Below are positions 8,061 through 46,264 of a DNA stretch of 52,401 bases, piece by piece. The notes under the pieces were generated by a model that was given only the letters and a program-made list of their open reading frames with translations, ran no database searches and was not told the DNA's origin. Position 1 is the stretch's first letter; each line of letters starts with the position of its first letter. The DNA is from Archaeoglobus sp. JdFR-37 (GTDB lineage Archaea; Halobacteriota; Archaeoglobi; Archaeoglobales; Archaeoglobaceae), in contig MTMY01000001.1 in the NCBI GenBank assembly GCA_002010215.1, positions 1 through 52,401 on the forward strand, read 5' to 3'. The translations under genes and the position numbers were made by a program.

Positions 8061-8186
8061 TCAGATTTTACAGCAGATATAAGTTCGGGGGATGTGTAAG
8101 GATGTGGAAATACCTCTAATATAAACCTCTGATATCAGTAACATCACAACCCATTAATACTCAGGCAACACAATCAGACTGTTACA

Positions 8187-8948: not shown

Positions 8949-8952
8949 TCTA

Positions 8953-10845: not shown

Positions 10846-10848
10846 ATT

Positions 10849-29984: not shown

Positions 29985-30002
29985 ATAGCCCCGCGGGGAT
30001 TC
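29985..30002. repeat. att site (duplicated tRNA-Gln 3' end)
   Basis: ATAGCCCCGCGGGGATTC, identical to 46191-46208. Confidence 0.93.
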
Positions 30003-30047
30003 TACATCTTCAAGGTTTATAACCCACAACTGCAATGACACAGTACA

Positions 30048-31274: not shown

Positions 31275-31319
31275 TTTTTTAGCGGTTTTATATACTGGAA
31301 ACCTATTTTCTGTTTTAAA

Positions 31320-31598
31320 ATGAGGCGCCAGCACACAGAGATAGCCATAACCCTGGCCCTGTTTGTAGTGGCTGAGCTGCTTTTAGACGCTTTGGCCGGT
31401 GACTGGCTGAAGCAGCAATTACAGAGTTTTCTTGGTGGCATTCCTGCAGCTATCGGTTTTGTAGCGGTGCTGGCGCTGATATGGGTGAGAGTTAGCAAGT
31501 ATGAGGCGTTGGCTGGTTTAGGAGGGAGTAGAGGTAGAAGGAAGGCTGGAGGCAAGAAAGGAGGTGTGAAAAAGGAAAGTAGGAAAGGAGGGAGATGA
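31320..31598 (+). CDS. Small viral membrane protein (2 TM, basic C-terminal tail)
   Basis: Two hydrophobic helices, K/R/G-rich tail; TTTATATA ~25 nt upstream. Confidence 0.7.
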   Translation: MRRQHTEIAITLALFVVAELLLDALAGDWLKQQLQSFLGGIPAAIGFVAVLALIWVRVSKYEALAGLGGSRGRRKAGGKKGGVKKESRKGGR

Positions 31599-31602
31599 AA
31601 GG

Positions 31603-32013
31603 ATGAGTAAGGTAAGGAGAGTTGGAGGGGCTGTAAAAGCCCAGTATGGACATCATTGGGGCGGCAGCTTCAAGAAGGGTCGCATAGGGCTCATGGAAGT
31701 CGGAGCGCTGGTTTTCTATGTACTCGCCAGCATCGCTGCGTTCGGATTGGGTTCGCTGAGTCTTTCATGGCTCACTGACTTTACATGGCTTATCGTGATT
31801 ACAACGATGCTGATAGTGCTTTCTCAGAAGAAAGACGTCACTCTGACGGGTGTCGAGGTAATTGGAGCTATTGTGGCAGTTGTGCTTCCCCTAGCGGCAG
31901 CGGGGCAGCTTACTTCAGTGGGCATTGACATAAGCAGCTATGTCGCTTCAAACGGCTTCCTGCTGTTTCTGATAAGCGTTGCGGGGGCAATTGTAGCAGC
32001 TACTCAGGATTGA
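31603..32013 (+). CDS. VP3-like matrix/internal membrane protein
   Basis: Basic N-terminus plus ~4 TM, directly upstream of the spike as in pleolipoviruses. Confidence 0.65.
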   Translation: MSKVRRVGGAVKAQYGHHWGGSFKKGRIGLMEVGALVFYVLASIAAFGLGSLSLSWLTDFTWLIVITTMLIVLSQKKDVTLTGVEVIGAIVAVVLPLAAAGQLTSVGIDISSYVASNGFLLFLISVAGAIVAATQD

Positions 32014-32053
32014 AGGAAGATCAGGTTTTTCTCAAAATTTTTTACCAAGAGGG

Positions 32054-33574
32054 GTGGGGCAGATGAGCAACAAAAGAAGGGCAGTAATGGCCGCATTTAT
32101 GCTAACGATGCTGATAGGGCAGACTGTGGCAATACCGCTAATTATCCCGCTGGCAATTGGCGGAATAATTGGGGCTGGCGCCATCGGTTACTGGCTTGGA
32201 TTGCAGAAGTCAGAGGAATATCAGCAGCTAATAGCGGATTATGAGGCTCAGCTGACTTCAAACACTATTCAAAACGACATTAACACACGTTTATATCTGC
32301 AAGAGATCTATGCAAGGGACAACAACATAATAGCGCTTGGTCAGGATTTGTTGCAATATTCACGTAATTATGCGTGGGCTCTGGCAAAGTATGAAGCTTT
32401 GAAGGTCTTGGATACTGAGCTAAACAATGGTTCTAACTTCACGACTGCAAAAACTCTGGCAAAGCAGAAGGCACATGATGCTGTCTATAACTACTATGTC
32501 AATGTGACAAAGAACATCATAGCGCTGCATAATGAGACAGTAGAACTGATCTCTTATGCATTGTATAACTATAGCAACATTGGAATTAGTGAGGTTAAAC
32601 TTGAAGGTAGTCATTTCATCGTTGGTTCAGGCAGTGCTAGCGGTTACGTTAGATTTGATAATAATACTGGAGTGTGGAAGAACTGGCGAACAACTTGGGG
32701 ATCTGAGAGACAGACTAATTTCCAGAATGACTGGACAGAGCCGGAAACTCTGAATCTGCTTGGCACGAGTTTTAACATGAGCAGATTAGATTTGATCTTT
32801 GATTGTCCTGATGATCCGGGATATACCGTCCATTTGTATGCCACAAAGGTCTATATTGCTGGTGATTTGGTTTACAATAAGACAAAGTACACAGATGTGC
32901 TTAATGCGATTGACAGCGAATATAACATGATCAACTCTAACATTGATGCATACATTGATGGGCTTGCCCAGAGTTATGTTGATCAGTGGAATATTACGGC
33001 TCTGATTGATCCATACATCTTGGCTGGCTTGTTGAATCAGGATCTCAATGAAACAGGTTATCATGGTTATGCTGCTGCAGAGTTGGCCCTTATGGGTCTG
33101 AACACTACGGGCATTAATACGACTGTTAACATTACTGTCTATGATGGCGGTAATGCGACAGTCATGGAGGGCTGGCTGTTTACAGACTGGCAGGGAACCC
33201 TTGAAACTGGCCAGAATTATACGGCTAACAGCAGTTATAAGTGGTTCTTCGTTACTGATGGGGGTGTCTATGATCTAACTGGCTATAACTTCAGTGTTGG
33301 ATCTCTCAAGGATTGGCAGGGTAACAGTTTGACAAATGTAACCTTGAAGCGATATGTCAGCCATACCGGTGACGTTGTGAAGATGTATGATGAGCTCTCG
33401 CAAATAAGGCAGCTTTACGAGGAGTACATCAACAACCTGCAGGCTATGGCAGCAGGAGGGGGCAGTGGGGGCTTTGACCTCTCTGCCTGGTGGGCTTCGC
33501 TGGATCAGACTGCTAAGCTTGGAGTTGTTGCCGTTGGAGCAGTAGGCCTTTACGCAGTTCTCAGGAGAAAGTGA
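32054..33574 (+). CDS. VP4-like spike/membrane fusion protein
   Basis: Signal peptide, hydrophobic IPLIIPLAIGGIIGAGAIGYW segment, ~18 N-x-S/T sequons, GGGSGG linker, C-terminal TM plus RRK; 506 aa. Confidence 0.8.
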   Translation: MGQMSNKRRAVMAAFMLTMLIGQTVAIPLIIPLAIGGIIGAGAIGYWLGLQKSEEYQQLIADYEAQLTSNTIQNDINTRLYLQEIYARDNNIIALGQDLLQYSRNYAWALAKYEALKVLDTELNNGSNFTTAKTLAKQKAHDAVYNYYVNVTKNIIALHNETVELISYALYNYSNIGISEVKLEGSHFIVGSGSASGYVRFDNNTGVWKNWRTTWGSERQTNFQNDWTEPETLNLLGTSFNMSRLDLIFDCPDDPGYTVHLYATKVYIAGDLVYNKTKYTDVLNAIDSEYNMINSNIDAYIDGLAQSYVDQWNITALIDPYILAGLLNQDLNETGYHGYAAAELALMGLNTTGINTTVNITVYDGGNATVMEGWLFTDWQGTLETGQNYTANSSYKWFFVTDGGVYDLTGYNFSVGSLKDWQGNSLTNVTLKRYVSHTGDVVKMYDELSQIRQLYEEYINNLQAMAAGGGSGGFDLSAWWASLDQTAKLGVVAVGAVGLYAVLRRK

Positions 33575-33607
33575 CCTTTTCCCCTTATTTTTAATATGGT
33601 GGTTTAG

Positions 33608-35026
33608 ATGGCTAGGGGAGCTTTCGTTTTCTTGCTATTTTTCTTGGTGTCATTGGTGCTTATTCCGGCCAGCGCTGACTACATAGACATGTCAAAATTT
33701 GCCAGGAATGCAACGGTTCAGGAGCTTGGGAAGTTCAGCAGCCAGCCAGATTTAGTTTACTGGAGCAACGAGACGAAGAAATTCATAACCGGCACAGAAA
33801 GCAAGTGGGTGATTGATAGCTGGGCTTATGTGGTTGACTATGACCTGAATAAGGGCTATATCGTGGTATATACCAACAGGACTGAGCCAGTAACCATTGT
33901 TGACGTCTTTGGTGGCACTTGGAAGAAAGCAACAATCCATAAAGGCTACAACTATTTCAATTTCTCCGGAGTGCAGGAATATGCCGGGCTTAAGGTTGTA
34001 ACAATAGGCTCACCCTCAGGTTTCGCCATCTTAAAGCAGAAAAGGGATATTTTCTACTTTGAGGACTATCCCATAGCCATCCTTAAATCTGAGCTGGCAA
34101 AGTTTAGCTGGCAGAGGGCAGCGGGAGCCTTGGGGCTTTTCCTTGTGGGCTTCGCATTGAGCTATTGGCTTAAGCGGGAGAGGCTTTTGATCAGCTTTGT
34201 TGACAATCTGGTAATAATATCGGTCTGCATTATTCTAATTCTGGCTGTTCTGAGTGTAGATTATACAACAACGATGGTTAACATCCCTGCAGGCAACTCT
34301 ACAATAGCTAAGGAGATTCCTGCCTTAGAGCTTAGCAAGGAGAAGGTCAGGGATATGTATAACTGGGCTTTCGCTGTATTCTTCATAGCGGGCTTTCTCT
34401 TTGCCATGCGCTTGGCAGACTACGAAAAGCTTTACCTGGCTATCGTGGATTACTCTAAACCAATCAGGCTTTATGAGCTGCCATATCTCCCAAAGAAGGG
34501 GCTCATCAGGGATTTTGATAACAGATTAACCAAGATCAGCTTTAAGGAGGACTTTAAGCAGCTCATAAGCTTTGAGCTGGATGGGAAGAGTGTTAAGGGT
34601 ATTCTGGCGGTGAAGGCAGAGGACAGGGTTAACGACAGCAAGGCGGAGTTTAACGCCAGGTATAGCCTGATTGCTTTCTTTGCCATGCTTATAATCTCGG
34701 TTGTGGCAAATTATCTCAATGCCTTCAAAATAGATCTGGCTTATTCGTTGCTTTTAGCAGCGATAACTGCCTCAATATTCAACATCAAGGCCATAAAACA
34801 GCATTTCAGCCTAGAAGTCACTAAAACAAAGCTCATTGAATGCAGCGAGATAATGAACGAGGATAACTATACCAAGATGCTCAAAAACGCCCAGATCAAG
34901 CAGATTGCCGAGGATTACAACAAGCTGTTGAGGGCTTACGTTAGGGAGAAGATTACGATGCCACGCAAAACTGTCAGTGAGCTTTTGAGCGTCATCAGGG
35001 AAGTAAAGGGTGGTGGCGATGAGTAG
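33608..35026 (+). CDS. Viral multi-pass membrane protein (post-spike morphogenesis position)
   Basis: Signal peptide, extracellular domain, ~5 TM; lies between spike and NTPase. Confidence 0.65.
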   Translation: MARGAFVFLLFFLVSLVLIPASADYIDMSKFARNATVQELGKFSSQPDLVYWSNETKKFITGTESKWVIDSWAYVVDYDLNKGYIVVYTNRTEPVTIVDVFGGTWKKATIHKGYNYFNFSGVQEYAGLKVVTIGSPSGFAILKQKRDIFYFEDYPIAILKSELAKFSWQRAAGALGLFLVGFALSYWLKRERLLISFVDNLVIISVCIILILAVLSVDYTTTMVNIPAGNSTIAKEIPALELSKEKVRDMYNWAFAVFFIAGFLFAMRLADYEKLYLAIVDYSKPIRLYELPYLPKKGLIRDFDNRLTKISFKEDFKQLISFELDGKSVKGILAVKAEDRVNDSKAEFNARYSLIAFFAMLIISVVANYLNAFKIDLAYSLLLAAITASIFNIKAIKQHFSLEVTKTKLIECSEIMNEDNYTKMLKNAQIKQIAEDYNKLLRAYVREKITMPRKTVSELLSVIREVKGGGDE

Positions 35027-35384
35027 GGTGAACTTAAAAGCTAATGACAAGGTAGAACAGCTTAAACGCTTTATCAGTTACCGATTAGGCAAAAAGTTAG
35101 GTCTTGGAACCCTAGTTTTTGATCCTTTTGGTGATAGGCTTATTTTCCTTTTAGACGTTGCAGAGAAGGAATTTGGCAAGGAGGCGAGAGATGAGCTTTT
35201 CAGGTTTCTGGAGCCTTACCACAAAATGAGGGTTTTGAAGACTCTTCAGAATGAGGCAATTAAGCAGAAATTCTGGATAGCGGCAAGCGATCTGGCTAAA
35301 CAGGATGGCGAGAAAGAGAAAGTGGAAGAAAGCGATGATGACATTTTGGGCTTATTCGATGGCGGGGAGGGATTGGATGAATAA
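35019..35384 (+). CDS. Viral hypothetical protein
   Basis: Overlaps both neighbours; acidic tail. Confidence 0.65.
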   Translation: MSRVNLKANDKVEQLKRFISYRLGKKLGLGTLVFDPFGDRLIFLLDVAEKEFGKEARDELFRFLEPYHKMRVLKTLQNEAIKQKFWIAASDLAKQDGEKEKVEESDDDILGLFDGGEGLDE

Positions 35385-36417
35385 GCTCATGAACGTTATA
35401 AATTCGGCAATAGAGAATGATGGCTTTCTTTTTATCGGGATTCTCGGTGATAAAGGGCTTGGCAAAACAGTGTTGGGCATGAACATAACCTTTGACATTC
35501 TGAAGGATTGGCGGGCTGTGTTGAAGCACATGGTGTTTACCATTACCGATTTCAGCAATCTGTCAGGGAGGAGCGATCTGATACGTCATACTGATGGCAG
35601 AATTAAAGCGGTGTTGTGGGATGATTTTGCTTTGCATACATCATCATATGGTTTTACGAAAAAGGGAGAAAGAGAGCAGCTTATTGACTTTATAGAGGAT
35701 TTTGAGGTTGTTAGGGAAGAGGTTGCTGTTCTGATTGTAACTGCTGCCACCTGGGAGATGATCCCACCAAAGCTCAGGGATGCTGCCCATATCTTCATAC
35801 AGATGACAAAGAGGGGAAAAGGAGAGGTATGGGCAAAGCAGAGGGGATGGCTGTTTTTGAGAAAGGATTACAAGAAAATCGGGGAAATCGAGAGTCAGAA
35901 GATTCCTGATGAAATCTATAATGAGTATAGGGAGATGAAGCGTAAAGCCAAGAGAGTAAAGGAGAAAATGGCAGTTATTAAGCAGAAGGAAAGGGCACGA
36001 AAACTGGCATTGGAGCTTTCCTCAGAAGAGTGGAAGGACATAGACCTGTTAACTGCTTATGGCATTCTGGACATGCATGGCAACTTAACAGAGTTCGGGA
36101 GGCTGGTTAAGAAGTATGCGGAAGAGGTTGGGGTGGAGCCTGAGAATGGGCATATAACATATAATAAGTGGTATGTGCGTGGGATGGGAAAATCCCACTT
36201 GACGGAGATAAGCAAAAGCGTGACAAGGGTCAATGATAGAGGTAGAATTGTGGTCCCATATGAGCTGAGGAAAAAATATGGGATTCAACAAAAAAGCGTG
36301 TTCTTGTGGCTTGATTTTGGTAAATTTGTCATAGGCTTACCGGATATCCAGTATGAGGAGTTTGTAAACTTTTTCTTTGATGAAGAGAAAGGGGAAGTTG
36401 AAGAGGTGGGAGGTTGA
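35377..36417 (+). CDS. Viral P-loop NTPase with C-terminal AbrB-like domain
   Basis: Walker A GDKGLGKT, Walker B VLWDD; C-terminal VNDRGRIVVPYELRKKYGI; start moved to MNKLM. Confidence 0.8.
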   Translation: MNKLMNVINSAIENDGFLFIGILGDKGLGKTVLGMNITFDILKDWRAVLKHMVFTITDFSNLSGRSDLIRHTDGRIKAVLWDDFALHTSSYGFTKKGEREQLIDFIEDFEVVREEVAVLIVTAATWEMIPPKLRDAAHIFIQMTKRGKGEVWAKQRGWLFLRKDYKKIGEIESQKIPDEIYNEYREMKRKAKRVKEKMAVIKQKERARKLALELSSEEWKDIDLLTAYGILDMHGNLTEFGRLVKKYAEEVGVEPENGHITYNKWYVRGMGKSHLTEISKSVTRVNDRGRIVVPYELRKKYGIQQKSVFLWLDFGKFVIGLPDIQYEEFVNFFFDEEKGEVEEVGG

Positions 36418-36680
36418 CAGATATACTTAGTGCATCCCCCCTCCTCATTCTTATTGGGTTGGTGGTGCTATCCTGGTTCACAGGCAGCAAGCTGATCAAG
36501 GTTGTTGCTTTGGCGGTATTTTTTGGGGTTCCACTTATCCAAGGTCAAACAGCTTTGCCTAATAGCTTGGATGTCAGTCAGTTTTTGGATTTCGTGATTA
36601 ATACGGTTAGTTACTGGCTTACTGAGGCTCTGGACAGCTTGATTAATTACATCAAGGCCAAGTTGATTGGGAGCATTTAG
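36414..36680 (+). CDS. Small viral membrane protein
   Basis: TTG start overlapping the NTPase stop, GGAGG RBS, 2 TM. Confidence 0.65.
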   Translation: MTDILSASPLLILIGLVVLSWFTGSKLIKVVALAVFFGVPLIQGQTALPNSLDVSQFLDFVINTVSYWLTEALDSLINYIKAKLIGSI

Positions 36681-36697
36681 ATCCTGTTCTCCAGGTT

Positions 36698-36784
36698 TGT
36701 GTCCACACTCCTGCAGAGCTCCCTGTGTCCACATTACGGTCCTATGCTTGTGTCCACAATCCTAGATCTTTCTCTGTGACCACA
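36698..36784. repeat. Array of four TGTG(T/A)CCACA quasi-palindromes at 25-26 bp period
   Basis: Copies at 36698, 36724, 36749, 36775. Confidence 0.9.
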
Positions 36785-36858
36785 ACCAGCATGATAATTC
36801 CTTACTTTCACTCCACCCAAAACTCCTATTTTCTGATAAACTGAGCCTTTTTTCACCG

Positions 36859-37143
36859 GTGATGAGTATGAATGTTGAACAGGATTTGATGGATTACAGG
36901 TTTAGAGCCGTTCTGAGGGCTGGTAAGAAGGGTGACCATAGCATAAGTATAGATGCCAGAAAGATTGCTGTGAGAAACAACGTGGACAGGAAGGGCGGAC
37001 TTTACAGGCTGAACCTTGAGCAAATCATGATTGAGTTTGGTGAGGATTTGGCGATGGAGTTCTGGGAAGTTTTGATGTATCTGTTACCGGAGATGAAGGT
37101 AAAGGAGGCGATTAAGGAGTACGTGGAGAGGATGAGTTTTTGA
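36859..37143 (+). CDS. Viral hypothetical protein
   Basis: 94-aa ORF downstream of the repeat array. Confidence 0.6.
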   Translation: MMSMNVEQDLMDYRFRAVLRAGKKGDHSISIDARKIAVRNNVDRKGGLYRLNLEQIMIEFGEDLAMEFWEVLMYLLPEMKVKEAIKEYVERMSF

Positions 37144-37189
37144 CAGCTCTGGAGGTAAGGTATTTTATTTTTCAAGAAGATGTGAGATT

Positions 37190-37312
37190 ATGAGTGATGA
37201 GCTGACTGATGAGGAGATTAAGGAAGTGGAGGAGATCATTGAGGCATGCAAGACTGGAAAGATGAAGGTTTATACTATTGAGGAAGCAAAGAAGGAGTTA
37301 GGCCTTGAATGA
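37190..37312 (+). CDS. 40-aa acidic RelB-like antitoxin candidate
   Basis: MSDELTDEEIKEVEEIIEACKTGKMKVYTIEEAKKELGLE*; ATGA overlap with the next ORF. Confidence 0.55.
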   Translation: MSDELTDEEIKEVEEIIEACKTGKMKVYTIEEAKKELGLE

Positions 37313-37407
37313 GTTTTGAGGTCAGGCTTTCTGATGTATCTGTTACTGAGGTGAGAGTAAAGGAAGCGATGAAGGAGCTGGATATTGACTGGACTCTACT
37401 GCCATAA
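37309..37407 (+). pseudogene. Possible RelE-like toxin stub fused to a duplicated fragment of the 36859 gene
   Basis: MSFEVRLS start; 37332-37377 resembles 37073-37119. Confidence 0.4.
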
Positions 37408-37467
37408 TGTTAAAAAGGCATTGAGATTGTGAAAGAACCAGAATTTTAACCTCATGGAGTGAACTAA

Positions 37468-37719
37468 ATGATCAGATTTTCAGAACATGCACTGAAAAGA
37501 GCTGAAGAGAGGGGGATAGATTTAAGTCAGGTTGAACTAGTAATCAGGGAACCACTGGAAGTAATTGACGTGAAATTTGGAAGAAAAGCGGTGTTCAGAC
37601 AGCTTGAAGAAAAATATCTCGTTGTAATTTATGAAGAACAAAATGATGAAATAGTTGTAGTTACAACGTTAAAAGTGGATAAGGAGAGGCTGAAAAGATA
37701 TGGTTTCAGTAGAGTTTGA
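37468..37719 (+). CDS. DUF4258-like (BrnT/RelE-fold) putative toxin
   Basis: FSEHALKRAEERGI...LVVIYE...IVVVT. Confidence 0.75.
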   Translation: MIRFSEHALKRAEERGIDLSQVELVIREPLEVIDVKFGRKAVFRQLEEKYLVVIYEEQNDEIVVVTTLKVDKERLKRYGFSRV

Positions 37720-37906
37720 TCCCGAAGTAAATGCGATGTTCATAAGGTTTAAAGACGGAAAGGTGGCAGAATCGGAGCCCTTAGCTGACAATATCATCGT
37801 GGATCTGGATGAGGATGGAGAAGTTGTGGGAATAGAAATTCTCCTGCCAAAGCTCGAAAGGGAGCAAAAGGAGTTTGTTGAAAGGATATTGAAGGCAAAG
37901 GTTTGA
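37700..37906 (+). CDS. DUF2283-like putative antitoxin
   Basis: FDPEVNAMFIRF...IIVDLDEDGEVVGIEIL. Confidence 0.85.
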   Translation: MVSVEFDPEVNAMFIRFKDGKVAESEPLADNIIVDLDEDGEVVGIEILLPKLEREQKEFVERILKAKV

Positions 37907-38073
37907 AGAATTAATGATTTCCAGTGCTCATTCTTCTGTTTGATTCTTCTGTTTTATTTCTCTCAGCTATTTGAGGAGATCAGGAAGTGAAACGGTTTCC
38001 TCCATGGCTGATAGTTTTAACAAGGAAGAGGTTTAGCATTAGAGTTTTTGGTAGGAAAAGTTACTTCTCAAAC

Positions 38074-38394
38074 TTACCGAGTTAGAATTTCTAAAAGCAA
38101 GGAAAACGTGAGCCCTGTCCAAAGACCATATGTTATAACATAAACAACGTTGTAGATTCTCTGAAGTTTCGGACTCATTCTTTTTTTCCTCCTATAGCTT
38201 TTCAGAAACCAGAGTGAAGCTGAGAAAATTATCACAATGAGTAGATATATCGGGTTTTTGTTTGTGAGAAAATTCATGAAAAGTATAATTTGCCAGAGGG
38301 CTGCATTAGCCCACATGAAGTTTTCTATGTCTCTGCTATTGCGGATTATCCAGTTTTCTGTTCTTTCATACATTTTGTATAGGAAATCGCTCAT
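38074..38394 (-). CDS. Cargo membrane protein (~3 TM)
   Basis: Hydrophobic segments; coupled to the upstream ORF. Confidence 0.6.
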   Translation of the reverse strand: MSDFLYKMYERTENWIIRNSRDIENFMWANAALWQIILFMNFLTNKNPIYLLIVIIFSASLWFLKSYRRKKRMSPKLQRIYNVVYVITYGLWTGLTFSLLLEILTR

Positions 38395-38693
38395 CTTAAT
38401 CTCCTCCGGGCGGAATACAGTTTGTAATTCAGGTATTCGATTTCATCTCTTATCGAATTAATTTTTTCGTTTAACATTAGGAGGAAAAGCAGGATGAGGA
38501 GATCAGCCCACATGGCTGGATAAGTTGAGGAGGTTGGCGATACGATTGTAATGCTGATATTGATGTAGGACTTTTTTAACAAGCTATCGACAATGTGCTG
38601 GATGATTGGGATAAGAACTGCGCTTATTATTGCTATTTTCAGGTTTTGTGGTATCTTTTTTATAATCGGTTGTTCCTGGGGTATTTCGTTCAC
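38391..38693 (-). CDS. Cargo membrane protein (2 TM plus coiled tail)
   Basis: Hydrophobic segments; 4-nt overlaps on both sides. Confidence 0.6.
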   Translation of the reverse strand: MNEIPQEQPIIKKIPQNLKIAIISAVLIPIIQHIVDSLLKKSYINISITIVSPTSSTYPAMWADLLILLFLLMLNEKINSIRDEIEYLNYKLYSARRRLR

Positions 38694-39205
38694 CCCTCAC
38701 CCCCCATCAATTCCCCACTAACTCTGTCAAGCTCCTTTGAAGGCATCCTTATCCTCAAATGGTGTATCAGAAAGATCGCTGAGGCAATAAAGAAAATAAA
38801 GGGAGAAGACCCTAAGAAAGGTGGAGGATGGTTTATTTGTTTGAGAAGCTGCTCAAATATTACGAAAAAGCCAATCTCAAACAATCCAACTAAGAAGGCG
38901 AAGAAAGAGGTTATTAAAACTGTTTTTCGGAATTTTAAGCTTAACAATCCAAATATTATTGAAAGGAAAAAGCATATCAGTATTATTTGATAGAGAGACT
39001 CCAGGATACCCATTAAATTTGAGGTTTTTTGACCGTAAGAGGGTATTTTTTCTGTGTAGATGAACAGGTCGAAAATATTGTATTCGACATTTCCCATAAT
39101 GGCAGTGGGAAGAACGATTCCTAAGATGAGGAGTAATAAACCTAAGTATGGTAGCAATCTTTTCTTTTTTGGTTTGGTTTCAGGGTTTTTGGCACTCATC
39201 CTCAC
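38690..39205 (-). CDS. Cargo membrane protein (~4 TM)
   Basis: Hydrophobic segments; GGTGAGG near the start. Confidence 0.65.
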   Translation of the reverse strand: MRMSAKNPETKPKKKRLLPYLGLLLLILGIVLPTAIMGNVEYNIFDLFIYTEKIPSYGQKTSNLMGILESLYQIILICFFLSIIFGLLSLKFRKTVLITSFFAFLVGLFEIGFFVIFEQLLKQINHPPPFLGSSPFIFFIASAIFLIHHLRIRMPSKELDRVSGELMGGEG

Positions 39206-39268
39206 CCACCCTTTACGCCCCCAATAACTTGGTTAGGAATAGACATCTCTCACTATTTTTGCCTTAAC

Positions 39269-40201
39269 TTACCAATCACGAACAACCCTCGTAGATTCCA
39301 CTTCTCTCTTTCCACCTTTTGATATCTTCCAAAGTTTATTAGCTGCTCGTGCTGTGGTGATTGCAATCTCTCTCCAATTATCAACAATGTCCGGGCTATC
39401 ATCGGGATGTGCTCTTTTATTTCTTAAGTTACGTAAAAAATCAACAAGACTTTTAATTTCCTGGGTTATTACTCGTTCACTGTTGTCTTTCCATCTCACA
39501 CGATATAATCCTCCAGTAAGATCTGCAAGGCTTTGCTCATGAAGCGGCTCTTGTTTATCTTTTCCTTTTTTTGTTATGGTTACTCCTAAATTTTTTGAAA
39601 TCCGGCGTAATACACCTTCTAAACCTCTTAAAGCGGCAAAAACTCCTTGCTCCTCCATACCCACCGAGAATAAATCACGAGCAACTCTGAAATCCTTTTG
39701 TAAATCTGGAGGTAAGTCTTTGATTTCATCCATCAAGAACCTATTAAATTCCTCCGTCAATTCGTAGAATCCATCTAAAAGTTTTTTCGCCGCCCTCAGA
39801 TATTCTTTTATTTCTCTCTCTATTCGGCGAGTTTGACTGTATCGCTCCCAGTGAAGATGCAAGTCTTTGGCATAAAGAAAATCGTAAGCATAGCGGCTTT
39901 TGGCTAATTCTGGGAAGTAGAGGAATATATACTCAGCAAGCGAGGATATTGTCTCAACAAGGTCTAGAGTCTTGGTTAAAATATCTTTATTCCAACGTTC
40001 ACCCTCTGGTTGGCTACGGACTAACCTTTCCAGTTTCTCTACACTATCGTAAAACTCAAGGAAGTGCTTTGTGAGATTCATCATGTTATTGAACAGACAC
40101 TCTACCATCATTCCATCATAAGGGCCACGGTGGTCAATGAAGTAGGGGTTCACGTAATTTTTGAATTCATCAAACGAGTTCCAGCTTTTACGTTCTGACA
40201 T
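39269..40201 (-). CDS. Protein with C-terminal HEPN/DUF4145-like domain
   Basis: ARDLFSVG...AALRGLEGVL helix and RNKRAH (RxxxxH) motif. Confidence 0.65.
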   Translation of the reverse strand: MSERKSWNSFDEFKNYVNPYFIDHRGPYDGMMVECLFNNMMNLTKHFLEFYDSVEKLERLVRSQPEGERWNKDILTKTLDLVETISSLAEYIFLYFPELAKSRYAYDFLYAKDLHLHWERYSQTRRIEREIKEYLRAAKKLLDGFYELTEEFNRFLMDEIKDLPPDLQKDFRVARDLFSVGMEEQGVFAALRGLEGVLRRISKNLGVTITKKGKDKQEPLHEQSLADLTGGLYRVRWKDNSERVITQEIKSLVDFLRNLRNKRAHPDDSPDIVDNWREIAITTARAANKLWKISKGGKREVESTRVVRDW

Positions 40202-40204
40202 CAG

Positions 40205-41167
40205 TTACTCACCCTCCCTTAATTCTCCACAATCATTACTGGGTTTCTTTGGCTCTCTTTCTTCAGGTGTCTCATTGCTTTGTTCTTCGTTTTCGATTAC
40301 TTCGATCCATGAGATTTCATCCCAGGGGACAGAGACGATACCAATACTCTTCAAAAAGATGCTCTGGTCAGTCAGATCCCATAGATTACCACTAATCACC
40401 CCACATGAAGTGCAAATTTTTAATTTAGGAAAAATACCTCTGAAATCATCTATTTTGTCGAGTTCGATTAATCTTTGGACTCCCCTTTTAATACGGGTGC
40501 CTATTATACGATCAAGTATTGTAAAGAAGAACAGAAAGAACAGAATTATTAGAGAGTATGCTGAAAGTTTTGTGGGGTAGATATCTGGAATGATATTTGT
40601 GTTGAACAATATTGACAGTGATATTGCTATATAGAGCAAGTTTCCCCAAAAAATAAAACTGTAAAAGACCAAATTTTTATATATGGGTTCTTTTAATTTT
40701 TTAAAATTCATTGGTTCTATTATAACCAAATAGAAAAAAATAATGAGGATAAAAGTTATAACTAGTGAAGCGGTGAGTGCTATGCTTAGTATCATCGACA
40801 ATTCAATTAGTTTTGATAATTTAAAAATATATAGATTGAGAATTGATGATTCATAATACATCTCGATAGTGGCGACGACTATGGAGAAAAAGAGGCCAAT
40901 GAATATTGGAATGATGACTTTCTTAGGCCTTATTTCGTCATGCACAGATAAATAAAAATTTCTTACACTTCTAGACATTTCAAAAATATTTTTAAAAAAT
41001 AGTATCCTTTTTGTCTTTCGTTTGACTAATTCTCCTTTTTTGAGCTTTAAATCATAAACAAAAGCAATGAAAGTCAAAACTCCGATTATAGGAGATACTG
41101 ATTGATTTAACTCCTGTAATAACTGGGTAAATCCCTGAAATACTTGAACAGCCTCAATTGTTGCCAT
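40205..41167 (-). CDS. AT-rich multi-TM protein with possible C-terminal Sm-like beta domain
   Basis: ~5 TM; KICTSCGVISGNLWDLTDQSIFLK...VPWDEISWIEV. Confidence 0.6.
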   Translation of the reverse strand: MATIEAVQVFQGFTQLLQELNQSVSPIIGVLTFIAFVYDLKLKKGELVKRKTKRILFFKNIFEMSRSVRNFYLSVHDEIRPKKVIIPIFIGLFFSIVVATIEMYYESSILNLYIFKLSKLIELSMILSIALTASLVITFILIIFFYLVIIEPMNFKKLKEPIYKNLVFYSFIFWGNLLYIAISLSILFNTNIIPDIYPTKLSAYSLIILFFLFFFTILDRIIGTRIKRGVQRLIELDKIDDFRGIFPKLKICTSCGVISGNLWDLTDQSIFLKSIGIVSVPWDEISWIEVIENEEQSNETPEEREPKKPSNDCGELREGE

Positions 41168-41179
41168 TTAAATAGCCTC

Positions 41180-41356
41180 CTATAATTCTTTGATAATTGA
41201 TAAAAAAATTATAATCATCAATAAAATCCCTATAATCCAAATAAACCAAACGTTAAACCCAGTTATTATAGCAATTTGTGGTAAGACTATGAAGAAGAAT
41301 ACAATTACGAGGAAGATCGCTACTATTGTTTCCATTATAGCTTCTATCAACCCCAT
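41180..41356 (-). CDS. 58-aa two-TM membrane protein (below ORF-track cutoff)
   Basis: MGLIEAIMETIVAIFLVIVFFFIVLPQIAIITGFNVWFIWIIGILLMIIIFLSIIKEL*; GGAGG RBS. Confidence 0.6.
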   Translation of the reverse strand: MGLIEAIMETIVAIFLVIVFFFIVLPQIAIITGFNVWFIWIIGILLMIIIFLSIIKEL

Positions 41357-41357
41357 C

Positions 41358-41450
41358 TTAATCTTCCTCCATCAATTCCCCAATAAACTTCTCTGGATCT
41401 TTAGGAGGAGCCTGAGAATGATATTCCTCAAACTCCTTTTCCATCTCCTC
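41358..41450 (-). pseudogene. Relic 3' end of a paralogous wHTH repressor gene
   Basis: Translates EEMEKEFEEYHSQAPPKDPEKFIGELMEED*, versus EQIEKEFEEYHSHLPKEPDKFINELLEDK* of 41858-42199. Confidence 0.85.
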
Positions 41451-41470
41451 TTGCTGGACGATTTATCCAC

Positions 41471-41815
41471 CTAAATTGGCTCAGCATCGACTTTGTAGGA
41501 ATAATTCACACCGTATTCCCCGTCAAGAGTTAAAGTAACCTTAGTACTTTCACCCTTCTTAAGGTAGATAACTTCAGAAGCAGAATCTCTTGTTTGCCCA
41601 GTATCGGATATAAGCTGTGCAGAGACTTTAATATTTCCATCTACCCCATTATTTTTGACCCATATCTCAATTGTGTATACTACTCCTTTAGAAAGACTGA
41701 AATCTGGTGTTGCTCTTGATTGTAATATTACTGGATCTGGTTTGTTTGGAGTTGAGCAGCCGCTAAACAATATTGCAATCATAGCAACTGCGATTAACAT
41801 GTAAAATCTTTTCAT
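41471..41815 (-). CDS. Viral lipoprotein with a single beta-sandwich-like domain
   Basis: Lipobox ILFSGC; beta-rich mature part. Confidence 0.75.
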   Translation of the reverse strand: MKRFYMLIAVAMIAILFSGCSTPNKPDPVILQSRATPDFSLSKGVVYTIEIWVKNNGVDGNIKVSAQLISDTGQTRDSASEVIYLKKGESTKVTLTLDGEYGVNYSYKVDAEPI

Positions 41816-41857
41816 GGGAATTATTGGTTGAATATCTACTTAAATTTTGCTGTTTAG

Positions 41858-42199
41858 TTATTTATCCTCTAACAGTTCATTGATAAATTTATCAGGCTCT
41901 TTTGGCAAGTGAGAGTGATATTCTTCAAATTCCTTTTCAATCTGCTCAAGTAACTGAACAACTTTTTTACCAAGAGGGGAGAGCTGGTAAGCTTTGGATC
42001 CTGTAGGGGTATCGAATACTAAGTTAATCTGAATAAGACCGAGATTCGAAAGCTCACGAATGCTCAAGCTTAACGTGCTTTGATCTACAATTTTCAGGAG
42101 ATCGCTCCATCTTTTAGGCCCATCTTTAAGGGCAAAAAGTGTCTTGTAGTTTCCAGATTTTGACAGCTTTTTGAGGAGTTCCAAACCATCTTTGTTCAT
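41858..42199 (-). CDS. Winged-helix (HxlR-like) regulator, putative provirus repressor
   Basis: LKDGPKRWSDL...STLSLSIRELSNLGLI...YQLSPLGK. Confidence 0.8.
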   Translation of the reverse strand: MNKDGLELLKKLSKSGNYKTLFALKDGPKRWSDLLKIVDQSTLSLSIRELSNLGLIQINLVFDTPTGSKAYQLSPLGKKVVQLLEQIEKEFEEYHSHLPKEPDKFINELLEDK

Positions 42200-42278
42200 C
42201 TGGTAACTCTGTTAGCATCCTATTATTTAAGATGGTATTTATGCCCTAGCTTAACCTCTTTGTTATTTTTGAACTTAC

Positions 42279-42340
42279 TTTGTGATTCCACAAACTATAA
42301 ATATTTGGAATTCTCCAAACTACTTTGGAGGTTGACAAAC
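42279..42340. promoter_or_regulatory. Divergent promoter region with three TTTG-N8-CAAA operator-like sites around TATAAATA
   Basis: Sites at 42279-42294, 42304-42319 and 42324-42339. Confidence 0.7.
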
Positions 42341-42523
42341 ATGCAGGTGTGGAGTAATGTTCCAGATGAGTGGAAACCCAAGATAGAGAAAGCAATGAAG
42401 GCAATGGGCGTAGAGAACAACGTAAGCCGCTACATCTGGCTTCTCGTCTGGCAGAACCTCAGAGAACTTGGGCTCCTTGGCGTCAAAAACGGTGAATCTG
42501 AGAAAACTGTTCTGGAGGGTTGA
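42341..42523 (+). CDS. Ribbon-helix-helix (CopG-like) regulator
   Basis: MQVWSNVPDEWKPKIEKAMKAMGVENNVSRYIWLLV strand-helix-helix pattern; GGAGG RBS. Confidence 0.6.
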   Translation: MQVWSNVPDEWKPKIEKAMKAMGVENNVSRYIWLLVWQNLRELGLLGVKNGESEKTVLEG

Positions 42524-42732
42524 AAATGGGATTTTTGATTGGACTTCTAGAAAGAAGCTCTTGGTTCGGTTTCGGAATAATGATTGGAGCGATGGCAATG
42601 CAGCATTTCAGCGATTTCACGCTCGTATATTCCTCAGGATTCCTGATATGGGCTGCGATGTTCTTCAGTGCCTTCTACTTGTCGGAGAAGGAGAGGCGAA
42701 AGAGAGCGAATAAGACTATTCTGGAGGGCTAA
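42520..42732 (+). CDS. Small 2-TM membrane protein
   Basis: Two hydrophobic helices; ends KTILEG like the upstream gene. Confidence 0.55.
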   Translation: MKMGFLIGLLERSSWFGFGIMIGAMAMQHFSDFTLVYSSGFLIWAAMFFSAFYLSEKERRKRANKTILEG

Positions 42733-42833
42733 GCCATGAACTTCCTCCGAATCCTCTGGCTGGTCTGGACTGGCAAACTGAGATACCCGCCAGTCAGGAG
42801 GTGCTGGGGAAATTACCCTCGGAGGTGCTACCC

Positions 42834-42959
42834 TTGATATCCGTAACCGCTGAGTGCTCCTTTTGCGGTAAGCGACTCTCACAGGATCAGATCATTCTCC
42901 TTGGATGCTGCCCTCTCTGCCAGTCATGCTATGAGAGTTTGAGGAGGGTTAAGCCATGA
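42834..42959 (+). CDS. 41-aa zinc-finger protein
   Basis: TTG start with GGAGGTG RBS; CSFCG...LCQSCYE. Confidence 0.55.
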   Translation: MISVTAECSFCGKRLSQDQIILLGCCPLCQSCYESLRRVKP

Positions 42960-43114
42960 GGGCTGAGAAGTGCCACGCATTTTCTCAGTTTTCACCTACC
43001 CGCTGCCTTCTGCCAAATCCCAGGATTTGTCGTCATTTCGACATCAGAGAATACCTGTGCTCCCAGCCCTGGCTAAGAGAGCTGAGAGGGGAGGTGGGTG
43101 TGGTTGTTCGTTAG
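42956..43114 (+). CDS. 52-aa Cys-containing viral protein
   Basis: MRAEKCHAF...; GGAGG RBS, ATGA overlap. Confidence 0.45.
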   Translation: MRAEKCHAFSQFSPTRCLLPNPRICRHFDIREYLCSQPWLRELRGEVGVVVR

Positions 43115-43238
43115 CGCCCTTGACCTGCTGATAGAGTCCGGCAGATGTCCATGCCAGGGGGAGCTAGAGAAAACTCCCACAGGCTGGAGATGCACCCGCT
43201 GTAGCTGGGAAATTGTAGAGGTTAGTAGAGATGCCTGA
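43098..43238 (+). CDS. 46-aa zinc-ribbon protein
   Basis: GTG start with GGAGGTG RBS; RCPCQGEL...WRCTRCSW. Confidence 0.55.
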   Translation: MWLFVSALDLLIESGRCPCQGELEKTPTGWRCTRCSWEIVEVSRDA

Positions 43239-43410
43239 GGTCAAGTATCCGGGGCTGAACCGCATGGCAGAGGAGTTGAGCAGGATTCTGAACAAACATC
43301 CAGCAGCAGTTCGCAATACCATCCTGAGCAACGTGAAGCACTTGCTTGAGAACATTCCGCCTGATGAGCTTCTCTCAATCTTTGAGGAGGATGGGGAAGA
43401 TGGACGATGA
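43231..43410 (+). CDS. 59-aa viral hypothetical protein
   Basis: MPEVKYPGLNRMAEELSRIL...; overlaps both neighbours. Confidence 0.5.
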   Translation: MPEVKYPGLNRMAEELSRILNKHPAAVRNTILSNVKHLLENIPPDELLSIFEEDGEDGR

Positions 43411-43612
43411 GACTCTCTGGGCTATCGCCCTGAACGGTTCTCCCATTGCTGCCGCCATAGCTCTCGCCATCCTTGATGAGAGGCTTGGAGGGAAAATCTC
43501 CGAGCTGAAAAAGAAGCTGGATGAGATGTATGCTCCCCACCGCAGGAGCGGTATGGCCGGTGAAATCCCGGCGGGGAGCAGGAAAGGAGGTGTGACATAT
43601 GGCAGAGGTTAA
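43400..43612 (+). CDS. Viral hypothetical protein
   Basis: MDDETLWAIAL... (internal start of ORF-track 43346..43612). Confidence 0.5.
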   Translation: MDDETLWAIALNGSPIAAAIALAILDERLGGKISELKKKLDEMYAPHRRSGMAGEIPAGSRKGGVTYGRG

Positions 43613-43919
43613 GGAGGCCGGAAAGATCGGGAAGGTGGAAAAGGTTGAGAATGGAAACGGAAACGGAGAGAAAGCAACCAAAAAGCCAGTTGAGACGGTG
43701 AACATCTTCACCAGCAACGGGATGCTTAGTTTCAGCGTGTGGGAGGGAGGCAGCATAAGCGTCAGAGTTAGCAGGAGGAAGGATGGAAGCGATGAGTACG
43801 AGAACGTCTGGAGCGGCAGGATAAACCCGGTTGACTTCATAAGCCAGTTTGGAGAGCTCAGGACTGTTGCAAAGACAGCCCAGGATGAGCTTAAGAAGAT
43901 TTTAGGCCAGGAAATCTGA
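43599..43919 (+). CDS. Putative PC4-like ssDNA-binding protein
   Basis: KPV...GMLSFSVWE..SISVRVSRR..EY pattern; GGAGGTG RBS; upstream of rep. Confidence 0.45.
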   Translation: MAEVKEAGKIGKVEKVENGNGNGEKATKKPVETVNIFTSNGMLSFSVWEGGSISVRVSRRKDGSDEYENVWSGRINPVDFISQFGELRTVAKTAQDELKKILGQEI

Positions 43920-43946
43920 TCTCCCTTTTTATTTTATGACAGGAGG

Positions 43947-44288
43947 GTGAAGATGCCTGAATATTATCGAAGTATTGAGCTCAACTTCGGGAATGAGGAG
44001 ATTAGCTTTGGTTTTTACTACGACAGCAAGAAGCACAGATACCTGATTTCTATTAACTACGGGGAGGAATATATCAATGTCACGAGAAAAGAGGGAGAGA
44101 CGATTCTCGCTTTTCTGAAAATACTCAAGGACTTCCTTGGAAGTCGAAATAATCTTCGAATTCCTAGAAGCGGATCTTCTTCTAAAGATTCTTCGAGTAG
44201 GTCCGACTCTCGAGACGTCGAAAGAGCATTAGACTTCTTGGAAGAGGCAGCTGCCTCTAAAATTTCTTCGACTCCCAAGGAGGTTTAA
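43947..44288 (+). CDS. Viral hypothetical protein; 3' half overlaps a structured DNA region
   Basis: GGAGGG RBS; Ser-rich low-complexity C-terminus. Confidence 0.5.
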   Translation: MKMPEYYRSIELNFGNEEISFGFYYDSKKHRYLISINYGEEYINVTRKEGETILAFLKILKDFLGSRNNLRIPRSGSSSKDSSSRSDSRDVERALDFLEEAAASKISSTPKEV

Positions 44289-44305
44289 TCAACTCAAACA
44301 TTAGC

Positions 44306-46177
44306 ATGAAGCGGGTTGTTGTTGCTGTCTCTCCCTTCGCAGAACCCCACGAATTTTTAGGAGTAGATGGGGAAGTCTATTCTGTTGTTCCTAACGCTGT
44401 TCTAATTCTCCCTGAGCTTAATGCTAGGGTTTTGGAGAAGCATAAGCTGGCCAGGATAGTTGGGGAATATAAAGAGCCGGAAGAAGATCCCTTTGAGCGG
44501 TGGCAGAGGGAAAGCATTGACCCCCTGGACTTCCTGGAAGACCCATCGGATGATCCTATCAAAGCATGGGCTGAGGCAGAGCTTCAAAAAGAATACTCCA
44601 AACCCTCACCAGACCTCAACCGCATCGTAGAGCTCCGCATGATAGCAAAGGGCCTCAACCCTGTGGCGATTCTAAGCAACGACACAACCAGGCCCTCACC
44701 AGCCACTCCGACCCAATCCCACCAGGGGAGCCCCACGGGTTTATCTCGACCCTTTAGTAATACGGTACAGGCCCAAAATTTTGAGGATTTTATTGAAGAG
44801 GATGAATTCAAATATGAGGGGCAGAAGCTGAGGCGAGCCCTTGAAACCTTCGGGCTTAGGTGTATTACAACGCTGCAGGCTGTCAGGATCTCTGGCCTTA
44901 ATCAGATTGATTTGAGCGGTTATGCGATTCTCGATTATGGTTATACGAGGGTTGAGCTGCATGAGGAGTTTGCCAGGCTTTTACATGATTTGGGGTATAA
45001 TCTCGAGAAGGATTTTGCCTTAACGCTTCTCTTTGAGGAGTATCGTTGCGAAAAGCACGGTTATGTTTACAAACCCGTCATAGACTGGGAAAAGAAGTTC
45101 TTCAATGAGGATGGAGACAGGAAGAAAAGCTTTAAGCTGATTGCCGGGCGCTTGCATCCCTTAAAGAAGTATTCGGACAGTAAGCGCTACTCAGCCTTAA
45201 AGCTGGAGCAGATTAGGGCGATAAATGACGTTGCCAGCCAGGAGGCTGTTAGCTATAGAGTTTTTGATGGGTTCCTTAAGAAGGTGAGGCAGAGGGATTT
45301 AGCTTTGCTCTGGATGGTGTTTACGATTCCTGATAAGCTGAGTAAGGATTTCGCCAGCTATACGCTTGCCCATCCTGGGAAAGTAGAGGATCTGATGAGA
45401 AAAGCTGTTAGATCCACCCTTAAGAGGTTCCTTAGGAAATACCTGAAGAAACATGAGAACGTTCCATTATATGGCGATTTCAAGATGGGCGGGCTTATGA
45501 ACATCCATATCTGGAGCAGCAGCGAGCCAACAAAGCCCCATTTCCACGTTCACGTCATGCTCTGGAACATCGTTATCCATGAGGGAGAGATTATCAGGTT
45601 CAGCCCCTATTTCCCCAAGGAGTGGCTTGCAGAGCTCAGGAAGCTCTGGGCCAGTGAGCTCAGGAAGAGGGTTAAGAAGAGCGACATTTACGTTTGGACT
45701 GACCCCTTCCGCTGGGAGGAGGATTTTGATTCTTTCAACATCTACACCTCATACACCTGGCTGGACAAGGATGAGAGCGGAGAGCTGGAGGAGGCTGGCA
45801 GAATTGCTCATCATCTCCGCTACAACTCCCGAAAGGCTGTTGTTGATCTCAACGAGTTCTTTTACTCTGGAGTTAGGGCTGATGAGCTTACTGACAAGGA
45901 GAAAGAGTGGGTGAAGTTTCTCCTTGAATACAGCAACAGAACCAGCAATTTTGGCTTTATGAACAACTGGCGGAAGGTGTTTGGGATAAGGAGAGATGTG
46001 GTAGAAGAGTTTCTGGAGAGGCTCCAGAAGGAGCATTATGAGTATTGCCCGATCTGTAAGGCTAAGCTGGAATACGTCAGGCTCACCACTATTGATGAGG
46101 TGGTGAGGCGTAGGCGTCTGTTGGTGCTGTGGTATTTTGATAGAAGGATGAATATTGAGGTTTGGAGGGGGTTATAG
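44306..46177 (+). CDS. rep: HUH rolling-circle replication initiator with N-terminal GINS-B-like domain
   Basis: Motif I MVFTIP, motif II PHFHVHV, motif III LRYNSRK, C-terminal CPIC. Confidence 0.8.
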   Translation: MKRVVVAVSPFAEPHEFLGVDGEVYSVVPNAVLILPELNARVLEKHKLARIVGEYKEPEEDPFERWQRESIDPLDFLEDPSDDPIKAWAEAELQKEYSKPSPDLNRIVELRMIAKGLNPVAILSNDTTRPSPATPTQSHQGSPTGLSRPFSNTVQAQNFEDFIEEDEFKYEGQKLRRALETFGLRCITTLQAVRISGLNQIDLSGYAILDYGYTRVELHEEFARLLHDLGYNLEKDFALTLLFEEYRCEKHGYVYKPVIDWEKKFFNEDGDRKKSFKLIAGRLHPLKKYSDSKRYSALKLEQIRAINDVASQEAVSYRVFDGFLKKVRQRDLALLWMVFTIPDKLSKDFASYTLAHPGKVEDLMRKAVRSTLKRFLRKYLKKHENVPLYGDFKMGGLMNIHIWSSSEPTKPHFHVHVMLWNIVIHEGEIIRFSPYFPKEWLAELRKLWASELRKRVKKSDIYVWTDPFRWEEDFDSFNIYTSYTWLDKDESGELEEAGRIAHHLRYNSRKAVVDLNEFFYSGVRADELTDKEKEWVKFLLEYSNRTSNFGFMNNWRKVFGIRRDVVEEFLERLQKEHYEYCPICKAKLEYVRLTTIDEVVRRRRLLVLWYFDRRMNIEVWRGL

Positions 46178-46190
46178 ACCTTAGAGGAGG

Positions 46191-46208
46191 ATAGCCCCGC
46201 GGGGATTC
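46191..46208. repeat. att site overlapping the tRNA-Gln 3' end
   Basis: ATAGCCCCGCGGGGATTC, identical to 29985-30002. Confidence 0.93.
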
Positions 46209-46264
46209 GAACCCCGGTCGCCGGCTCCAAAGGCCGGCATGATTGACCGCTACACCACGGGGCT
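46192..46264 (-). tRNA. tRNA-Gln (anticodon TTG), no intron, CCA not encoded
   Basis: Reverse complement AGCCCCGTGGTGTAGCGGTCAATCATGCCGGCCTTTGGAGCCGGCGACCGGGGTTCGAATCCCCGCGGGGCTA folds as a cloverleaf. Confidence 0.97.

Follow-up and report, generated by a model that had tools for sequence, protein, structure and literature searches.

The stretch of DNA analysed here (the window) is one entire contig, MTMY01000001.1, of 52,401 nucleotides (nt) from the 1.97-Mb assembly of the archaeon Archaeoglobus sp. JdFR-37. It contains a 16.2-kb provirus (29985–46208), and the accessory operon of this provirus is our subject. The provirus is bounded by an 18-nt direct repeat, ATAGCCCCGCGGGGATTC, the left copy of which (attL, 29985–30002) adjoins a tyrosine integrase gene (Phage_integrase, 30048–31274); the right copy (attR, 46191–46208, minus strand) lies within a tRNA-Gln gene (46192–46264). 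The element is the public record BK065158.1 itself, Pleomorphic virus ThalV2 (16,206 bp, window 29985–46190; coordinate x of the record is x + 29984 in the window), with 100% identity across 38000–42300. Its 506-residue protein p506 is 99.8% identical to the VP4-like fusogen of that record, 26.5% identical to that of AvPV1 and 23–24% identical to haloarchaeal VP4. Together with a VP3-like protein, an NTPase block (including the NTPase-like atp370), the integrase and the tRNA att repeats, this places the provirus among the AvPV1-like viruses (‘Thalassapleoviridae’) described by Baquero, Bignon and Krupovic 2024 (PMC10919331). The main text of that paper does not discuss the accessory operon, regulator paralogs or the gene remnants reported below.

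The operon runs leftward on the minus strand, convergent with a toxin–antitoxin-like DUF4258/DUF2283 pair (37468–37906, plus strand) that forms the right-hand limit of the variable region and is conserved at its convergent end in four loci of relatives (L024, L041, L043 and L044). Its first gene, rep113 (42199–41858), encodes an HxlR-type winged-helix regulator (Pfam HxlR, residues 20–96, 31.5 bits against a gathering cut-off of 20.8) that ends in ...PKEPDKFINELLEDK. We call it a putative repressor on the basis of its fold family, its position (it leads the operon and is transcribed away from the replication genes) and the precedent of SNJ2 Orf4; Chen et al. 2023 (PMC10123103) describe the latter as the winged-helix lysogeny repressor of a haloarchaeal pleolipovirus, encoded next to a toxin–antitoxin pair. 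A 42-nt spacer (41857–41816) separates rep113 from lipo114 (41815–41471), a lipoprotein-like cargo gene (signal peptide ending ...LFSGC; weak CARDB match under the cut-off) for which no homolog was found among the fetched loci of relatives. The final codons and stop of lipo114 lie within the first of three sequences that we call stubs, Stub 1 or the relic (41477–41358). The relic is followed by tm58 (41356–41180), a small membrane protein that is a conserved partner of a stub or a regulator gene, and by tm320 (41167–40205), a multi-pass membrane protein whose last ~17 codons (40205–40255, EPKKPSNDCGELREGE) constitute Stub 2. The cargo gene p310 (40201–39269), which is present or absent between sister viruses, and a 69-nt spacer (39268–39200; 63 nt if the GTG at 39205 is the start) lead to tm171 (open reading frame (ORF) 39205–38690, likely start ATG 39199), a membrane protein whose last ~17 codons (38690–38746, PSKELDRVSGELMGGEG) constitute Stub 3. 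The end of tm171 overlaps the start of tm100 (38693–38391) in a GTGA, and tm100 in turn overlaps the start of the last cargo gene, tm106 (38394–38074).

A Shine–Dalgarno (SD) core lies within 22 nt of the start in six of the eight operon genes (successive gaps behind the relic and the genes that follow it of 1, 12, 3, 69, −4 and −4 nt), which bears out the earlier assignment of such motifs to tm58, p310, tm171 and tm100; no SD core was found upstream of rep113 or of lipo114. The 16S rRNA 3′ end was not located in this assembly, so the case for SD use is made from genome-wide enrichment (461 of 2,049 gene starts preceded by a core versus 104 of 2,049 in the control interval), the anti-SD sequence of the organism being one that we assume. 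The spacer ahead of lipo114 contains a TATA-like box, AGCAAAATTTAAGTAG, ~22–31 nt before the ATG, and aligns with the spacers that follow regulator genes in loci L024 and L022 at a mean column identity of 79%; in those loci the box is equally far from the next ATG. Spacers behind ...INELL-type regulator genes in the window, L024 and L022 are 42–44 nt in length, conserved and TATA-like. This conservation, combined with the lack of an SD core at lipo114, makes the spacer a candidate internal promoter that is likely to provide a second transcription start, and suggests a leaderless transcript beginning at lipo114.

Short sequences recur along the operon. A preliminary description of the window had reported that CCATCAATTCCCCA is exact at 38704–38717 and 41369–41382 and that copies near 38.7 and 40.2 kb agree at 19 of 23 positions; on re-computation the first is a maximal 14-nt match and the second stands, at 38696 and 40208. 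A repeat search returned a four-copy family of 22 nt (38695, 39200, 40207 and 41360; 73–77% identity), a 43-nt pair (38701/41366, 72%) and a 38-nt pair between the relic and the resident regulator gene (87%). The sequence GGGGAATTGATGG occurs twice in 3.9 Mb (both strands of the genome), with both copies within this operon.

The clearest of these recurrences is the relic. It had been described as an orphan fragment at 41358–41450, and it proved to be longer: homology to the regulator spans 41358–41477 and covers regulator residues ~73–113, the 3′ third of the gene, ending in ...EKEFEEYHSQAPPKDPEKFIGELMEED. We built tail profiles from 12 regulator genes of relatives, none of them from the window; searched against its own whole genome, the relic has E values of 2.5e-12 (protein profile) and 3.3e-15 (DNA profile, nhmmer), and the tail of resident rep113 matches the same profiles more weakly (3.9e-8 and 4.2e-9, respectively). 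The frame of the relic is open for 34 codons (41462–41358) below an in-frame TAA (41465–41463), its upstream part overlaps the lipo114 stop (41473–41471), and its end supplies an SD (GGAGG) and a TAAGATG junction into tm58. The relic is of the ...FIGELMEED type, alleles of which occur as whole genes in relatives; its DNA is 86.8% identical to the gene end in L029 and 85.9% identical to that in L022, and 26 of its 34 residues match L029 versus 21 of 34 for resident rep113. Because it is closer to L029 than to rep113, the relic is the stub of another regulator allele. The idea that the operon is punctuated by copies of the resident repressor's 3′ end is thus replaced by one in which the stubs come from other alleles (...FIGELMEED type).

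Related loci show what the intact arrangement looks like. The fetched loci share a backbone of integrase, VP3, VP4 and NTPase genes, then a variable part, then the regulator, small genes and a rolling-circle Rep gene. In the window, the 623-residue protein encoded at 44306–46177 has an HFHVHV motif and a weak match to IS91 transposases (HUH; 2.5e-5); BK065158.1 names it as the rolling-circle Rep, and it ends 14 nt from tRNA-Gln/attR. Regulator homologs, about 100 matches in all, occur in 34 of 92 family genomes, often several per element and up to four in tandem, and their tails vary (...KFINELLDDN, ...EEFIGELMEED, ...EEFIGELMEGEK, ...KFIGEVIGGEGLD and ...KFVNELIEGE). Many alleles have, in their last codons, the SD for the gene that comes next, whose start those codons abut or overlap. 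In L029, a regulator end ...GGAGGAAGATTGA (...GELMEED and stop) is followed by the ATG of a tm320 homolog; in L021, a regulator end ...GAGGGTGAGTGACTA (...ELIEGE and stop) is followed by the ATG of a gene that is 70% identical to p310.

Truncated regulator tails lie at cargo joints of the window, L055, L045, L041, L021 and L023, so that one short sequence recurs between non-homologous modules in different genomes. Twelve profile matches were examined. We accept nine as stubs and leave two as unverified; the remaining one ends a full gene. In eight of the nine stubs, an ORF of at least 58 codons starts within 7 nt downstream, although two pairs are orthologous and the nine are therefore not independent cases; seven joints were aligned. 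In L045 (genome G034), the C terminus of a tm320-type gene is followed by an out-of-frame PKEPSKVNKDSMEG and stop, with a tail-profile match of E 0.089 in 263 kb, and then by the ATG of a 319-codon ORF. The joints thus carry degenerate regulator 3′ ends that hold the SD of the next gene, as originally proposed.

Three further observations concern these loci. Regulator paralogs, two to four in tandem and interleaved with cargo, are found in L027 (G021:C36:7597-11508), L022 (G031, 6408–8565) and L021 (G032, 8198–11183), and such loci may show the stub pattern at an earlier stage. In L021 (7328–8197), a 289-codon ORF behind a 56-residue regulator stub of G032 ends in ...KPKEHDEPVRNSMEGKIE, overlapping the next start, and is possibly one more cargo gene that reads into a stub. 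The flank downstream of p310 in L021 (EQFIGVG...) was considered as a further stub and set aside, as its similarity is not significant.

Whether the shorter tails of tm171 and tm320 belong to the same class depends on separating regulator ancestry from the embedded SD. With the SD included, local alignment fails to separate the tm171 tail from chance (a tie with unrelated genes, ranks 2–5 of 2,060, score 17–18), and we therefore masked the SD and ranked the remaining 39 nt, ungapped, against the last 75 nt of 2,063 genes. The queries were three G-type tails (the relic and two genes of relatives), which are mutually homologous, and the null gene calls are crude (longest ORFs). The tm171 tail ranked first of 2,063 with all three queries (28 of 39 positions with the relic, 26 of 39 with each of the others), and the tail of the resident regulator ranked below it (3 to 47). 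With the relic as the query, one unrelated gene also reached 26 of 39. The SD-masked ranking supports the view of this tail as a regulator remnant, whereas its profile matches are weak (nhmmer E 5.1 genome-wide; rank 6 of 2,067 gene-end segments). The tm320 tail fared differently: it is not significant by itself (rank 33–140 of 2,063, with no profile matches), and its connection to regulator tails runs through two intermediates, the stubs of L055 and L045 at the same joint. With the G034 stub as the query, it ranks first of 2,063 (23 of 36 positions), with the tail of the resident regulator at 3–8. The weaker copy that had been placed at 39200–39235 was dropped as a stub. It matches at 16 of 27 positions, its similarity is at the control background (44–59 of 2,052 upstream regions are as good) and it is absent from protein and DNA profile matches. 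The preliminary description had asked whether the similarity outlasts masking of the SD; for tm171 it does, and for tm320 it does not without the intermediates. The sequence TTATTGGGG, in the spacer between p310 and tm171, occurs 14 times in the genome, twice in the operon. The tails of tm100 and tm106 are not stubs, and their gene-end ranks lie in the bulk of the null.

The sister virus on metagenome contig L055 allows boundaries to be mapped. It is 97.8% identical to window 39202–33381 and 96.8% identical to 43935–42715, and it differs across the whole 39203–42715 segment; p310 is absent from it, but so is the rest of this segment in its window form, and the contrast is not one of p310 alone. 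At the head of the L055 operon, a 112-residue regulator (...INELLEGD) directly abuts tm58′ (L055 5310–5483, 30 of 58 residues identical to tm58), where the window has Stub 1. Two small membrane genes follow, then an open stretch of 28 codons, EEQSNEPPEEKEPEKSNKVDGEMMEGKG, without a start codon until its final 6 codons. In it, the terminal codons of a tm320-type gene are joined to the relic of a regulator tail, and the ATG of tm171′ comes next. The three best L055 matches to the tail profile are the regulator tail (4.5e-13), the 28-codon stretch (0.0015) and the tail of tm171′ (0.027). The tail of tm171′ is the same as that of tm171 in the window, and Stub 3 is shared by descent.

Block ends coincide with stubs (40212/40216, 40260 and 39202), in agreement with what the preliminary description had expected of cargo boundaries in related viruses. 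The block shared with L055 (40288–40212) and the p310 block shared with L021 (39266–40216) meet within the SD core of Stub 2 (40212–40216, minus strand). The second mapped joint is at 39202/39203, where identity to L055 collapses 3 nt ahead of the tm171 ATG, directly after the SD; the two joints, the only ones mapped, are thus both in or beside an SD core. In contigs of three sequencing runs from three studies, 39202 is joined to 40251 with 42 letters between, and 1,048 nt are missing. The homology that tm320 shares with its relatives extends only to 40260 and that of tm171 only to residue ~157 of 171, in both cases exactly to the start of the tail.

The other edge of the replaced segment is formed by p70 (42520–42732), a 70-codon ORF that is missing in the sister form: a contig of run X3 lacks 209 nt there (between 42509 and 42719), and 42715 and 42519 are where the L055 blocks end. 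In a contig of run X2, at 80% likeness, a related virus joins 37040 (the p94 region) to 41366 (the 3′ end of a G-type regulator) and may have no cargo between the two. Three scans of viral contigs, with p310, rep113 and one alignment as queries, returned no relatives.

The cargo itself is of mixed and mostly narrow distribution, which supports the earlier proposal that unrelated genes accumulated behind the regulator. The gene p310 occurs in 2 of 96 genomes of the class, its 70%-identical counterpart standing directly behind a full regulator gene in L021, and tm100 has no relatives in 91 other family genomes. Relatives of tm171 are found in four of five genomes of one other genus, where they end in ...RRTEMIS or similar, without the tail, and no downstream gene is coupled to them. 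These tm171 relatives (L032–L035, in G087, G030, G088 and G086) are 43–47% identical and have no other virus gene in the ~3.4 kb fetched, and this cargo may be of cellular origin. The RNKRAH of p310 (residues 260–265, window 39407–39424) is an Rx4H motif; its structural look-alike clusters, which are leads only (TM 0.33–0.53), include DUF4145, ‘Abortive infection C-terminus’ (Abi_C) and HEPN, and a Pfam Ribonuc_2-5A match is faint and under the cut-off (0.0082). It is possible that p310 encodes a nuclease of the HEPN type that serves in defence or exclusion. For the cargo proteins, no usable match came from PADLOC or NCBIfam, and none from PHROGs.

On balance, we favour the explanation that the accessory operon of ThalV2 is a mosaic in which at least three joints are scars left by winged-helix regulator genes, whose truncated 3′ ends were kept as translation start regions. 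The last 45–120 nt of a regulator gene would be functionally part of the downstream gene, holding its SD and abutting or overlapping its start. A new regulator and/or cargo would come to lie before such a gene when related viruses, or tandem regulator paralogs, recombine, and only recombinants that keep the stub would leave the downstream gene translatable, so that the stub would travel with that gene. Regulator-headed modules would be joined serially in this way, each event cutting the older regulator but sparing its end; we propose this because stub-plus-gene units of the window are found elsewhere as a whole regulator plus gene. For Stub 3, no ‘regulator–tm100’ ancestor is traceable, given that tm100 lacks relatives in the other family genomes. 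A newly arrived upstream ORF would either read in frame into the stub, gaining C-terminal codons (tm320 and tm171), or stop just inside it (lipo114). We infer that the youngest event placed rep113, its spacer and lipo114 before a ...GELMEED-type regulator that formerly headed tm58–tm320. The exchange may have been by short homology or illegitimate, possibly favoured by rolling-circle replication; replicons of the rolling-circle type are known to recombine at short direct repeats, and a HUH Rep is encoded here.

Several points weigh against this explanation. The profile score of the tm171 tail is weak (1.6 bits in the protein profile, rank 501 of 634 domains), the tm320 tail lacks significance without its intermediates, the 39.2-kb copy is indistinguishable from controls, and the rank test shares the mutual homology of its queries and the crudeness of its null. 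Besides six C-terminal-only matches to the regulator, the family has three that are N-terminal only, which means that simple gene decay accounts for some of the pattern. Recombinants that survive would in any case be expected to have their joints at gene boundaries, and the coincidence of block ends with stubs is no proof of cause. The repressor role of rep113 is, moreover, deduced from fold family and position only.

A stronger version, which we regard as a genuine possibility but would not bet on, holds that the stubs, or only their SD cores, are also preferred crossover sites. They would be hot spots and enzyme-free cassette boundaries at which genes could be gained, lost or shuffled in register with a ready-made translation start, by short-homology recombination without a dedicated enzyme. 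The operon would then perhaps be a functional analogue of an integron, produced by homology and selection in place of a site-specific recombinase. Both mapped joints agree with this. The tm320/p310 joint maps within a shared GAGGGTGAG core, and Stub 2 groups with L055 and G034 in its 5′ part but with L021 in its 3′ part; at the other joint, identity to L055 ends just past an SD. In addition, p310 keeps its upstream tail despite different upstream neighbours (the regulator in L021, tm320 here), tm320-type genes keep their downstream stub before varied neighbours (p310 here, tm171′ in L055 and the 319-codon ORF in L045), and the 1,048 nt missing in three runs fall between 39202 and 40251. However, there are only those two mapped joints, the flank to the left of p310 in the form lacking it is 79% identical, not 98%, which indicates regional replacement instead of clean cassette insertion, and at the far end of p310 the 39.2-kb ‘repeat’ lacks significance.

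We consider it improbable that the 41.4-kb relic alone is real and that the G/E-rich cargo tails reflect convergence forced by an embedded SD, plus chance. Unrelated genes do score as high as tm171 when the SD is included, endings of GEL followed by two to five residues and the stop occur in 9 of 2,060 genes, and the rank of the tm320 tail and the profile scores are poor. Convergence of this kind does not account for the first rank of tm171 after SD masking with queries that are independent of the window (the genes of relatives), for the confinement of both copies of GGGGAATTGATGG to this operon, for the intermediate stubs at orthologous joints of L055 and L045 or for homology that stops exactly where the tails begin.

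The preliminary description had likened the operon to an integron. As in integron arrays, a promoter-proximal row of mostly SD-coupled and putatively promoterless accessory genes has a recurrent sequence at its 3′ boundaries. The presence or absence of p310 between relatives is also in keeping with such a system, within a segment (39203–42715) that differs throughout. Capture of promoterless cassettes by a site-specific recombinase at a site formed by the tails nevertheless seems very unlikely. The sole recombinase is the integrase at 30048–31274, at least 6.8 kb from the operon, and its site is the tRNA-Gln 18-mer, which is unrelated to the tails; no IntI-type enzyme is adjacent. Five tail regions show neither an inverted repeat nor an attC-like hairpin (DNA fold z of +1.21, +1.03, +0.33, −0.60 and −0.56 against 200 shuffles each), and the stubs are 5′-truncated gene ends of different alleles with lengths of about 120, 57 and 51 nt. 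Least probable of all is that the tail is retained as a functional C-terminal peptide (a sorting, degradation or dimerization tag) or that the relic, of 28–34 codons, is a small protein interfering with the regulator: tm320 and tm171 both read in frame through their tails, an in-frame ATG within the relic leaves 28 codons and L021 has a 56-residue stub ORF with its own ATG, but orthologous stubs are untranslated in L055 and frameshifted relative to the tm320 homolog in G034, tm171 and tm320 have relatives without the tail, and the similarity is at the DNA level, with its 14-nt exact run. Because of those untranslated and frameshifted stubs, it is the DNA that is kept and the peptide that is dispensable.

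Joints of this kind have counterparts in phages. The modular theory of temperate phages is attributed to Susskind and Botstein, and later comparisons of lambdoid phages and mycobacteriophages reportedly examined boundary or linker sequences. The mosaic operon of ThalV2 resembles those junctions in that short conserved sequences lie where unrelated modules meet and exchange is between co-occurring relatives; replacement of 39203–42715 on a 97–98% identical backbone likewise recalls swaps of phage immunity regions. It differs in that the junction is the truncated 3′ end of one gene, the regulator, recurring serially in one operon, in that the same sequence serves both as the SD region for the gene that follows and as a source of C-terminal codons for captured genes, and in that the setting is an archaeal host and a rolling-circle pleomorphic virus. 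The cargo also resembles the prophage morons said to have been described by Hendrix and co-workers, as unrelated extra genes added to a provirus that are likely to be useful in the carried state, and lipo114 may have its own promoter. Unlike morons, most of the cargo lacks a promoter spacer and is SD-coupled to the preceding gene (gaps of 1, 12, 3, −4 and −4 nt). The likeness to SNJ2, as described by Chen et al. 2023 (PMC10123103), is that of a small winged-helix regulator in a pleolipovirus-like provirus near a toxin–antitoxin-like pair; by contrast, repression by rep113 is putative, and AvPV1-like viruses are produced chronically (PMC10919331).

The public annotation of ThalV2 lists gp14–gp21 all as ‘hypothetical protein’, carries no feature for the relic, and misses the chimeric nature of gp16 and gp18. 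To our knowledge, very little has been established about the acquisition and expression of accessory genes in archaeal pleomorphic viruses. In ThalV2, readable scars at the joints make the history of one operon reconstructable: the regulator would have been replaced at least once, genes would have come from relatives and probably from cellular genomes, and captured genes would have received new C termini. This history would yield a simple rule: when a gene whose start lies within the terminal part of its predecessor is moved, it takes that part with it. Were the stubs preferred sites of crossover as well, they would offer these viruses a recombinase-free way to build cassette arrays.

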